The notes beneath the pieces were generated by a model. The model saw only the letters and a list, made by a program, of their open reading frames with translations, had not been told where the DNA came from and did not search any database. The position numbers and the translations under genes were made by a program. DNA of 64,000 nucleotides from a virus. Position 1 is the stretch's first letter. Each line of letters begins with the position of its first letter. Positions 11,914 through 33,596 of the stretch are shown here, piece by piece. Location: IMG/VR virus record IMGVR_UViG_3300045051_000531; one strand, written 5' to 3'.

Positions 11914-11990
11914 TGGTCTGAACGAGAGGATTCGAACCTCCGGCCCCTTGGTCCCAAGCCAAGTGCTCTGCCAGGCTGAGCTACGTTCAG
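11914..11990 (-). tRNA. tRNA-Pro(UGG)
   Basis: Cloverleaf; loop CTTGGGA; encoded CCA. Confidence 0.93.
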
Positions 11991-11993
11991 GTG

Positions 11994-12069
11994 TGGTGCT
12001 GTCCACCGGAGTTGAACCGGTAACCCCCTGCTTACGAAGCAGGTGCTCTGCCAGTTGAGCTAGGACAGC
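11994..12069 (-). tRNA. tRNA-Thr(CGU)
   Basis: Cloverleaf; loop TTCGTAA; encoded CCA. Confidence 0.9.
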
Positions 12070-12070
12070 A

Positions 12071-12141
12071 TGCCACCGCCGGGAATCGAACCCAGTCCCC
12101 CTGCTTACAAAACAGGAGCTCGGCCTTAGAGCTTCAGCGGC
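12071..12141 (-). tRNA. tRNA-Thr(UGU)
   Basis: Cloverleaf; loop TTTGTAA; no encoded CCA. Confidence 0.85.
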
Positions 12142-32420: not shown

Positions 32421-32446
32421 TTAGGTACTCCTATATCGCCGAACGG

Positions 32447-32530
32447 GGTGTGGCGGGGCGGGGCGGGGCGAGGCGTGGCGGGGCGCGGCATGGCAGGGCA
32501 GGGCAAGGCCAGCTCTTTACGAAGCGCTGG
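32447..32530 (+). repeat. GGY-NN pentamer array 1 (13 units) with terminal UACG-loop hairpin; candidate guide RNA
   Basis: GGY every 5 nt from 32447 to 32511; hairpin at 32509-32530. Confidence 0.9.
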
Positions 32531-32560
32531 GGTTGACGAACTCATACGTACCACATCCGC

Positions 32561-32664
32561 GGCATGGCAAGGCTAGGCCTGGCATGGCAGGGCGATGCGG
32601 GGCGAGGCGTGGCAGGGCCTGGCATGGCAAGGCTTGGCGAGGGTTTCTTTTTACGAAAAGAAAC
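32561..32664 (+). repeat. GGY-NN pentamer array 2 (16 units) with terminal UACG-loop hairpin; candidate guide RNA
   Basis: GGC every 5 nt from 32561 to 32640 (one TGC variant); perfect 9-bp hairpin at 32643-32664. Confidence 0.9.
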
Positions 32665-32701
32665 GGTCGGCGGACCAATACGCATAAGAATGAGAGGCTT
32701 A

Positions 32702-33151
32702 ATGAACGGCTATGTGTACGTTCTGACTGACGGAACCGCGTTCAAAATTGGTTACACGAGTGATCGTCCGATTGTACGGCAATGGGGTTGCCAAGTCGGA
32801 AACCCGATTCAGTTAACCTTGGTACTAACGATACAGAGCAATGAGCCTGACGTGCTGGAGCGTGAGTTGCATCGACGTTACTGGCATCGAAAGGCGTTAC
32901 CACATAAACAAACCGGGGAATGGTTCAACCTGACCCCTGAGGATCTCAAGGAGATCCAGGAGAACTATCATGTCAAAAAACCTTACGATCCAATTTCACC
33001 TGGTGGGCACTCGCCCTTTGATGTTCGACCGGTACCCCGGGGACAACAAGACCAAGCTCCCGGACGACGAGAAGATGTACCTGGACGAGCATCGCCATTT
33101 GACGATCCCAACGATCAACCTGTTTTCGATGCTGGTGGCCGAAAATACTAA
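32702..33151 (+). CDS. T5orf172/GIY-YIG-like nuclease domain protein
   Basis: GYVYVL...FKIGYT...LERELH...GEWFNL; lower GC; the last about 60 codons overlap the next gene. Confidence 0.78.
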   Translation: MNGYVYVLTDGTAFKIGYTSDRPIVRQWGCQVGNPIQLTLVLTIQSNEPDVLERELHRRYWHRKALPHKQTGEWFNLTPEDLKEIQENYHVKKPYDPISPGGHSPFDVRPVPRGQQDQAPGRREDVPGRASPFDDPNDQPVFDAGGRKY

Positions 33152-33596
33152 ATCAGTTTGCAAACTGTTTCTTGGTAAAAATGGCAGAGAGGTCGCATTA
33201 GGCATCACGACGTTCTGCACGATCGAGCCGTTCGAGATCCCGATATGCGACGAAAAGGGCCCCATCACGTTTGCCGATTTCAACGACAAGGTTCGCGTGG
33301 TGAAGCACGTCGCCAGGTTGAACAAGGGTGTTCCGAACCCGAAGTCACGCCCGCTGATCGAGCTCCCATGGAGTATTGCCGGTACGATCACGTACACCGA
33401 GAACCCCTACTGCCCGTACCAGACTTTGCGCGACTGTTTCATCAAAGGAGGTATCATCGGGCTCGGGACGTTCCGACAGCACTTCGGCAAGTTCAGACTC
33501 GCACGATTCGAAACCGTCGCTGAAAGCGAGAGCGGGTTCGACATCGAGAAACCCGTGGACGACACTGAAGAGGCTCCTGCGGTCAAAAAGACCTGA
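32970..33596 (+). CDS. stand-alone RAMP/Cas7-like protein
   Basis: N-terminal strand IQFHLVGTRPLMF, central LTIPTINL and C-terminal Gly-rich loop GGIIGLGTFRQHFGKF; RBS AGGAG. Confidence 0.65.
   Translation: MSKNLTIQFHLVGTRPLMFDRYPGDNKTKLPDDEKMYLDEHRHLTIPTINLFSMLVAENTKSVCKLFLGKNGREVALGITTFCTIEPFEIPICDEKGPITFADFNDKVRVVKHVARLNKGVPNPKSRPLIELPWSIAGTITYTENPYCPYQTLRDCFIKGGIIGLGTFRQHFGKFRLARFETVAESESGFDIEKPVDDTEEAPAVKKT

Follow-up and report, generated by a model that had tools for sequence, protein, structure and literature searches.

A highly probable VIPR locus with two vrRNA genes and a T5orf172-like accessory gene in a complete 191-kb phage genome

The stretch of DNA analysed here (the window; 64,000 nucleotides (nt) of the IMG/VR record IMGVR_UViG_3300045051_000531) carries at positions 32445-33596 six features that follow one another on the + strand: a tract of NN-GGY pentamers with a structured tail, a second such tract with its own tail, an open reading frame (ORF) with a T5orf172/MUG113 domain, and the gene of a small Cas7-like protein, termed here vipr. 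The region is, with little doubt, a VIPR locus, in which two vrRNA genes, a T5orf172/GIY-YIG-like accessory gene and vipr lie on a single strand of a complete 191-kb phage genome, and every VIPR-defining feature open to sequence analysis is present. The record that contains the window is the complete genome of an uncultured phage, 191,518 bp long, with direct terminal repeats and a GC content of 62.6%. A gene of a gpA-type large terminase adjoins the locus on the opposite strand, in convergent orientation; with this gene and the terminal repeats, the genome is viral. Phages deposited in GenBank gave no megablast match to the region, and the sole tblastn match among them was Burkholderia phage vB_E436; a scan of the region against Rfam returned a single long non-coding RNA match below threshold, which is meaningless.

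VIPR, composed of the Vipr protein and vrRNA, is already known from four preprints of 2026 (among them bioRxiv 10.64898/2026.04.26.720920, 10.64898/2026.04.26.720927, 10.64898/2026.10.15.759431). In the discovery paper Vipr was introduced as a minimal RAMP with an RRM core, a glycine-rich loop and a thumb, accompanied in mostly viral loci by vrRNAs of at least four, typically 9-16, tandem YNNGG units that end in a structured constant 3′ tail (10.64898/2026.04.26.720920). The same paper reported that VIPR recognizes double-stranded DNA (dsDNA), in which the NN dinucleotides find their partners with a skip of one target base between them, and distinguished seven types and six accessory (vap) gene families (10.64898/2026.04.26.720920). 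According to the structural paper, two protomers hold every GGY, and the NN dinucleotides are presented for pairing with gaps (10.64898/2026.04.26.720927). The locus described here adds a further member to this system, and its clade is set apart by the T5orf172-like partner upstream of vipr, by the overlap of this partner with vipr and by the two-hairpin tail of the vrRNAs (Table 1).

Table 1. Features of the locus; nucleotide positions refer to the window and residue numbers to the Vipr protein.
Feature	Position	Strand	Description
vrRNA-1 tract	32445..32509	+	13 perfect NN-GGY pentamers
vrRNA-1 NN string	32445..32509	+	GG GT GG GG GG GA GT GG GC AT AG AG AA
vrRNA-1 tail	32509..32558	+	hairpin 32509-32530 with UACG loop; small hairpin 32531-42 GGUU-GACG-AACU; AUACG 32544-32548
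vrRNA-2 tract	32559..32643	+	17 pentamers, one degenerate (TGC for GGC), GGG after the last
vrRNA-2 NN string	32559..32643	+	GC AT AA TA CT AT AG GA GG GA GT AG CT AT AA TT GA
vrRNA-2 tail	32643..32690	+	hairpin 32643-32664 with UACG loop; hairpin 32665-32676 GGUC-GGCG-GACC; AUACG 32678-32682
Accessory gene	32702..33151	+	149-codon ORF; T5orf172/MUG113 domain in codons 1-90 (32702-32971)
vipr	32970..33596	+	predicted 208-aa Cas7-like RAMP effector (AlphaFold2, Foldseek, VIA-align, hhalign)
Vipr thumb hairpin	~residues 108-130		predicted beta-hairpin, invariant R127
Vipr G-loop	residues 160-175		glycine-rich, GGIIGLGTFRQHFGKF

The two tracts stand alone in the phage genome. When a pattern of five GGY (GGYNN x4.6) with at most one mismatch was compared with 100 dinucleotide shuffles, 23 matches were obtained, all of them within the two tracts, against 0.26 +/- 0.66 expected, and no further arrays of this kind occur elsewhere in the 191,518 bp. 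The initial annotation, made from the sequence without database searches, had reported two GGY-NN arrays of 13 and 16 units, each closed by a UACG-loop hairpin and both placed upstream of a 208-codon gene; the arrays, the first count, both hairpins and the gene were borne out, whereas the second array contains 17 units, the degenerate one included. It had also listed cas1 and a repeat-spacer array as missing, and here the absence of Cas1 was found to extend over the whole phage genome and that of a CRISPR-like repeat array over the window.

The link between such arrays and vipr is maintained throughout the family. Among loci of Vipr homologues, which were drawn from IMG/VR and other assemblies, 81 of 83 carry flanking arrays of at least six NN-GGY units right beside vipr, an association on which the initial annotation had made its reading depend. 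Arrays of at least eight units, counted across 84 loci, number 203 on the vipr strand and none on the opposite one, with a median of 15 units; their number and length vary among loci, and they are located both upstream and downstream of vipr, invariably on its strand. Across the arrays GGY is fixed and NN variable, and Y is C in 95% of units. The closest relative of the window, locus L009 (Vipr 66% identical), does not have NN strings in common with it, though the tail is shared. The terminal NN is AA in 97 of the 169 unique arrays (57%) of loci L009-L093, as compared with 12% for internal units, and array 1 closes with AA-GGC (32505-32509), which is the commonest terminal unit among these 169 homologue arrays. 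Because AA is enriched at the last NN, the terminal AAGGC unit may be part of a constant handle and not of the guide. In gene calls the arrays have also been taken for coding sequence: the N-terminal extensions of the homologues P0060 and P0078, as well as that of the window ORF 32564-33151, are bogus and consist of translated GGY-NN arrays and tail hairpins. Peptides such as ARHGVAWLGKARQGKG... could reveal hidden vrRNA arrays in protein databases.

The single-copy vipr gene encodes a protein that is confidently predicted to fold as a Cas7/Csm3-type RAMP with a thumb and a glycine-rich loop (AlphaFold2 model with pLDDT 91.5 and pTM 0.82). Every one of the best PDB matches returned by Foldseek is a backbone subunit of the Cas7 family from CRISPR complexes of types III and VII; they include Cmr4 (6s6b_I, E 1e-5), a number of Csm3 chains, and also 6ifn_E, which served as the Cas7 query of the VIPR authors (10.64898/2026.04.26.720920). 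In an independent structural search of all against all with VIA-align, Csm3 (9g9a_D) came first with Z 12.8, further matches reached 11.9 (6s6b_I) and 11.7, and Csm3 was followed in the ranking by Cmr4, gRAMP, and Cas7 of types I and IV. At the level of sequence, no match to Vipr was found in Pfam, NCBIfam or PADLOC, Cas hidden Markov models (HMMs) included, nor in the PDB. Its relatives comprise 80 unnamed homologues of 114-244 aa from a large protein collection and 177 confirmed members in IMG/VR, and an alignment of 40 sequences contains 21 invariant residues, R127 being one of them and R169 nearly so. Seven clusters of homologues, when looked up, yielded one MetaClust scaffold name and no public accession by which the family could be tied to the UniProt seed proteins of the discovery paper. 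Since the N-terminal strand is conserved in 39 homologues, translation more plausibly starts from the ATG at 32970; the public gene call (P0001, 191 aa) begins at Met18 and thereby cuts the conserved first beta-strand (window 32970-33020).

As an exemplar with tested function, the type II VIPR of Escherichia phage SUSP1 (NC_028808.2) was chosen for comparison. An hhalign alignment of the Vipr family profile with SUSP1 Vipr gave 95% probability and an E-value of 3.8e-8 over 107 columns. The published GGY contacts of SUSP1 Vipr include R138, W178 and R179 (10.64898/2026.04.26.720927), and in the alignment these residues pair with R127, F168 and R169, respectively; D177 of SUSP1 is replaced by T167. 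Both the RAMP/Cas7-like nature of the protein, for which the initial annotation had proposed structure prediction and Foldseek as a check, and the VIPR architecture, which it had put forward for verification, agree with the predicted fold, with the preprints, with the homology to SUSP1 Vipr and with the arrays that adjoin the homologous genes.

In each vrRNA the pentamer tract is followed by two hairpins and an AUACG motif. The UACG-loop hairpin of vrRNA-2 has a perfect 9-bp stem (z -2.6 in RNA folding) and that of vrRNA-1 contains one mismatch (z -1.0), while the second hairpin has a 4-bp stem in both tails; no pseudoknot was detected in the window tails. The same tail is present in L009 with compensatory changes in both stems, a covariation support that is thin, with only five tails of this type compared. 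Other subclades carry quite different tails, and the tail is therefore clade-specific. The idea that the YACG-loop hairpin is a generic element of this phage was rejected, since its genome-wide count of 20 lies within the 13-38 obtained for control loops. At positions 11944-12125 of the window a 29-nt unit occurs in three copies with a spacing of 73-80 nt; copies 2 and 3 contain a hairpin whose loop resembles TTACGAA (copy 3 has TTACAAA), a loop motif common to the vrRNA tails, and copy 1 is only 72% alike and lacks the hairpin. A different element, resembling the T-arm of tRNA (GGTTCGAnnCC between GC-stem arms), was noticed in the vrRNA tails of one subclade (L024:3679-3740, L025:3653-3720 with three more copies, L026:3628-3840 and L030:3645-3710). 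It suggests tRNA-like tails, possibly processed by host RNase P or RNase Z.

The initial annotation had described the RAMP-like protein as a stand-alone one. This view had to be abandoned, because a conserved T5orf172-like gene, which it had missed, is coupled to vipr. The product of this accessory gene scores above the Pfam cut-offs for MUG113 (41.3 bits, cut-off 22.3) and for T5orf172 (32.1 bits, cut-off 20), two families belonging to the GIY-YIG clan of Pfam. A profile search revealed a homologue of the accessory gene, placed between arrays and vipr, in 49 of the 84 loci, and in 48 of them it is located directly upstream of vipr on the same strand. Residues R26, E53, H57, E73, W74 and F75 are invariant, Y6 and KIGYT nearly so, and this is the conservation that an intact GIY-YIG-type site would be expected to show. 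The structural model of the protein has a pLDDT of 92.5, and its best structural matches, Slx1 (Z 5.5 and 5.0), HIGLE (4.5) and UvrC (3.9), are under the reliability level of the tool; Foldseek against GIY-YIG nucleases gave an E-value of 0.08. Given such weak evidence for the fold (Z 3.9-5.5), the assignment leans on Pfam. In the VIPR preprints T5orf172, GIY-YIG and MUG113 are not mentioned, the supplementary type tables lying outside that check.

The accessory ORF overlaps vipr by 182 nt; past its T5orf172/MUG113 domain it stays free of stops for 60 codons, which lie in the -1 frame of vipr. The same holds for each of the 50 loci that have an accessory gene, the window included: the accessory ORF reaches vipr without a stop; vipr is always in its +1 frame, and the accessory ORF reads 49-96 codons into vipr. 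The length of this opening was compared with that obtained after synonymous codons had been shuffled within each vipr gene, with the open length capped at 55 codons. Shuffled genes have a median open length of 0-41 codons in the -1 frame (4-25 in most genes), and openings as long as those observed arise in 0-33% of shuffles per gene in loci with the accessory gene and in up to 42% in other open loci. Altogether, the -1 frame is open over at least 48 codons in 68 of the 78 loci analysed and in ~36 of 40 lineages below 80% identity, far more than synonymous shuffling would lead one to expect. Codons that end in T and precede codons starting with AA, AG or GA account for 1.8% in the first 55 codons and for 21% later in the same genes, a measure that is not independent, because its loci were picked for an open frame. 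With amino acids matched, the use of identical codons amounts to 0.425 within the overlap as compared with 0.352 expected.

The simplest reading of the open -1 frame is possibly an overprinted C-terminal tail of the accessory protein. However, the frame is mostly open also in loci that lack a T5orf172 gene, and the encoded tail has no conservation beyond that imposed by vipr. A programmed frameshift that would fuse T5orf172 to Vipr was rejected, as there is no conserved slippery site, L009 not having kept the A6 run of the junction, and no fused protein came up in the searches for homologues. One might go further and regard the clade as a distinct subtype, in which a mini GIY-YIG-type nuclease, with its tail overprinted on the first third of vipr, docks onto the Vipr filament; this we consider unlikely, and if it were true, the system would be a compact RNA-guided DNA cutter instead of a silencer.

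Targets were sought by replacing each GGY of a guide with one wildcard base, in agreement with the published 1-nt skip. Those of the scans that relied on exact matching detect near-perfect targets alone and are blind to scattered mismatches. No self-target was found in the phage genome, where the maxima of 18/26 and 21/34 equal those of shuffled-guide controls, and this absence agrees with the published report that native VIPR guides lack a self-target (10.64898/2026.04.26.720920). Neither window guide matched any of the 84 homologue loci, and the 169 unique homologue guides compared with the phage reached no more than 21/24 in a 12-unit window and 24/38 over a full guide, the same as controls. 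Exact sub-patterns of 9-11 units retrieved a handful of matches from IMG/VR, JGI metagenomes and species genomes, a number close to chance by a rough estimate. The initial annotation had proposed that the NN string encodes a gapped target; the published target is dsDNA read with a one-base skip, and the search by this rule yielded no convincing target.

Several candidate targets were examined and discarded. For L094 (24/34), L095 (26/34) and L096 (23/34) the units that flank the selected segment agree no better than by chance; the flanking units of L097 (23/26) and L098 (21/26) are at chance level as well, and these matches are out of wobble phase with the real gene; the flanking units of L099-L102 (23/34) are likewise at chance level. 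The contigs of L095, L096 and L099-L102 have 32-40% GC, an improbable fit to a phage of 62.6% GC. The L095 match falls into an 80-aa ORF (L095:872-1111, - strand) within a phage-like replication module of 40% GC (exonuclease, annealing protein, helicase loader, HNH), where 13 of the 17 vrRNA-2 units are fully matched, in frame, along the peptide LINYLIREGEVRYGK. It has probably arisen by chance, though it is the sole lead to a target family, and it is not called a target here.

The present analysis establishes the anatomy of the locus, the predicted fold of its effector and the homology of the latter to a Vipr of tested function, together with the association of gene and arrays throughout the family and the lack of a self-target. 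That the arrays are transcribed, that they form a ribonucleoprotein with Vipr and that DNA is the target is inferred, as is the function of the accessory protein. By analogy with the tested SUSP1 system, Vipr protomers would polymerize along each vrRNA, one per pentamer, with each GGY held by R127 of the thumb and by the aromatic-Arg pair F168 and R169 of the G-loop, so that 13 or 17 NN dinucleotides would be left exposed. The filament would then bind dsDNA, reading it as NN-x-NN-x with one base skipped, and block its transcription, the likely victim being a rival phage, a satellite or a prophage within the same host. On the strength of its conserved GIY-YIG-type residues, the accessory protein might contribute cleavage or binding of DNA where the filament is bound.

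How firmly can the region be called a VIPR locus? Some observations speak against it: no sigma-70-like promoter was detected upstream, the sequence similarity to SUSP1 Vipr is limited to the C-terminal 60% of the protein, the tail consists of two simple hairpins, unlike the pseudoknot of the SUSP1 clade, and no convincing target was found in the phage genome, the 84 loci, IMG/VR, JGI metagenomes or 185,579 species genomes. The last of these is weak evidence, because the exact-match scans see near-perfect targets alone. It could be argued that the tracts are low-complexity coding sequence, which might for instance extend the 195-codon ORF 32564-33151 at its N-terminus, or else G-rich DNA with a structural or regulatory role, and that the RAMP-like protein is an unrelated RNA binder. 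Tract 1 is indeed very G-rich, all three reading frames are open across both tracts, and in P0060 and P0078 the arrays are translated as N-terminal extensions. However, conservation runs with a period of 5 nt and not of 3 nt, GGY being fixed and NN free, the arrays, which differ among loci in number and length, lie on either side of vipr and without exception on the vipr strand, and the protein has kept the GGY-gripping residues known from the solved complex of SUSP1, which leaves this explanation hardly credible. That the phage captured a CRISPR-Cas effector module of type III or type I, of which a decayed or orphan remnant without present function is left, is very improbable too: Csm3, Cmr4 and other Cas7 proteins are the closest structures, as such an origin would have it, but the genome lacks Cas1, the window lacks a repeat-spacer array, no Cas HMM of Pfam, NCBIfam or PADLOC recognizes the protein, and the ORF, itself intact, is one of a large and conserved family (177 IMG/VR relatives, 21 invariant residues).

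A further alternative leaves the VIPR machinery in place and alters its outcome, in that the filament would find the target and the T5orf172/GIY-YIG-like protein would cleave it, making the system an RNA-guided DNA cutter. Its position next to vipr in 48 of the 84 loci, the retention of Y6, KIGYT, R26 and E73, as expected of an active GIY-YIG-type site, and the scores above both Pfam cut-offs are consistent with such a role. There are precedents as well, since Odn, a nuclease with a T5orf172 domain, is reported to serve phage ICP1 against its satellite (PMC8263062), and some VIPR types carry predicted nucleases (10.64898/2026.04.26.720920). On the other hand, the protein resembles GIY-YIG nucleases only weakly in structure (best Z 5.5, Foldseek E 0.08), the 90-aa domain has no evident DNA-binding module, and the nuclease-bearing VIPR types reside mainly in cellular defence islands and not in lytic phages (10.64898/2026.04.26.720920). 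Cleavage is thus possible, if somewhat doubtful; the accessory partner suggests a cutting variant without demonstrating one, and transcriptional silencing by a VIPR filament is the reading retained here.

VIPR represents a class of programmable, RNA-guided recognition of DNA that has been described only recently, and divergent, verified members help to define which of its features are constant and which are free. At this locus the residues that grip GGY, the 5-nt code and the placement of arrays on the vipr strand are the constant ones, and the structure of the tail, the position of the arrays and the accessory genes are free. With VIPR already published the locus opens no new field; it places VIPR in a 191-kb phage, and its clade, with a conserved T5orf172/GIY-YIG-like mini-protein overlapping the effector gene, is a candidate cutting version of the system.

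When compared with known systems, Vipr shares the RRM-thumb-G-loop fold predicted here with Csm3 and Cmr4 (Z 12.8 to 9g9a_D and 11.9 to 6s6b_I), and also their logic, in which one subunit covers a fixed RNA period and the thumb interrupts pairing. Type III CRISPR-Cas differs by its period of 6 nt instead of 5 nt, by a contiguous spacer in place of a gapped guide, and by Cas10, Cas5, Cas6, Cas1-2 and a repeat-spacer array, all of which are lacking here along with any Cas7 HMM match. The resemblance to the VIPR of SUSP1 is closer: in both, one small RAMP protein with thumb and G-loop serves as the effector, the vrRNAs are GGY-NN pentamer tracts (13 and 17 units here) that continue into a constant structured tail, and the phage-borne locus has neither cas genes nor a self-target; the effectors are homologous at the profile level with the GGY-contact residues conserved. 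Their local identity, in contrast, is only ~25%, both vrRNAs lie upstream of the genes here, the tail is composed of two plain hairpins and AUACG where SUSP1 has a pseudoknot, and the accessory gene is upstream, T5orf172/GIY-YIG-like and overlapping with vipr, its product being unrelated to SUSP1 vap1 (hhalign probability 0.2%). With Odn of ICP1 and other T5orf172-MUG113 proteins the accessory protein has in common the Pfam membership, the Y...KIGYT...R...E...EWF pattern and the setting of a phage against its rivals. Unlike them, it consists of the 90-aa domain alone, to which no DNA-binding domain is fused, and it is coupled genetically to an RNA-guided effector, into whose gene its ORF runs in another frame.

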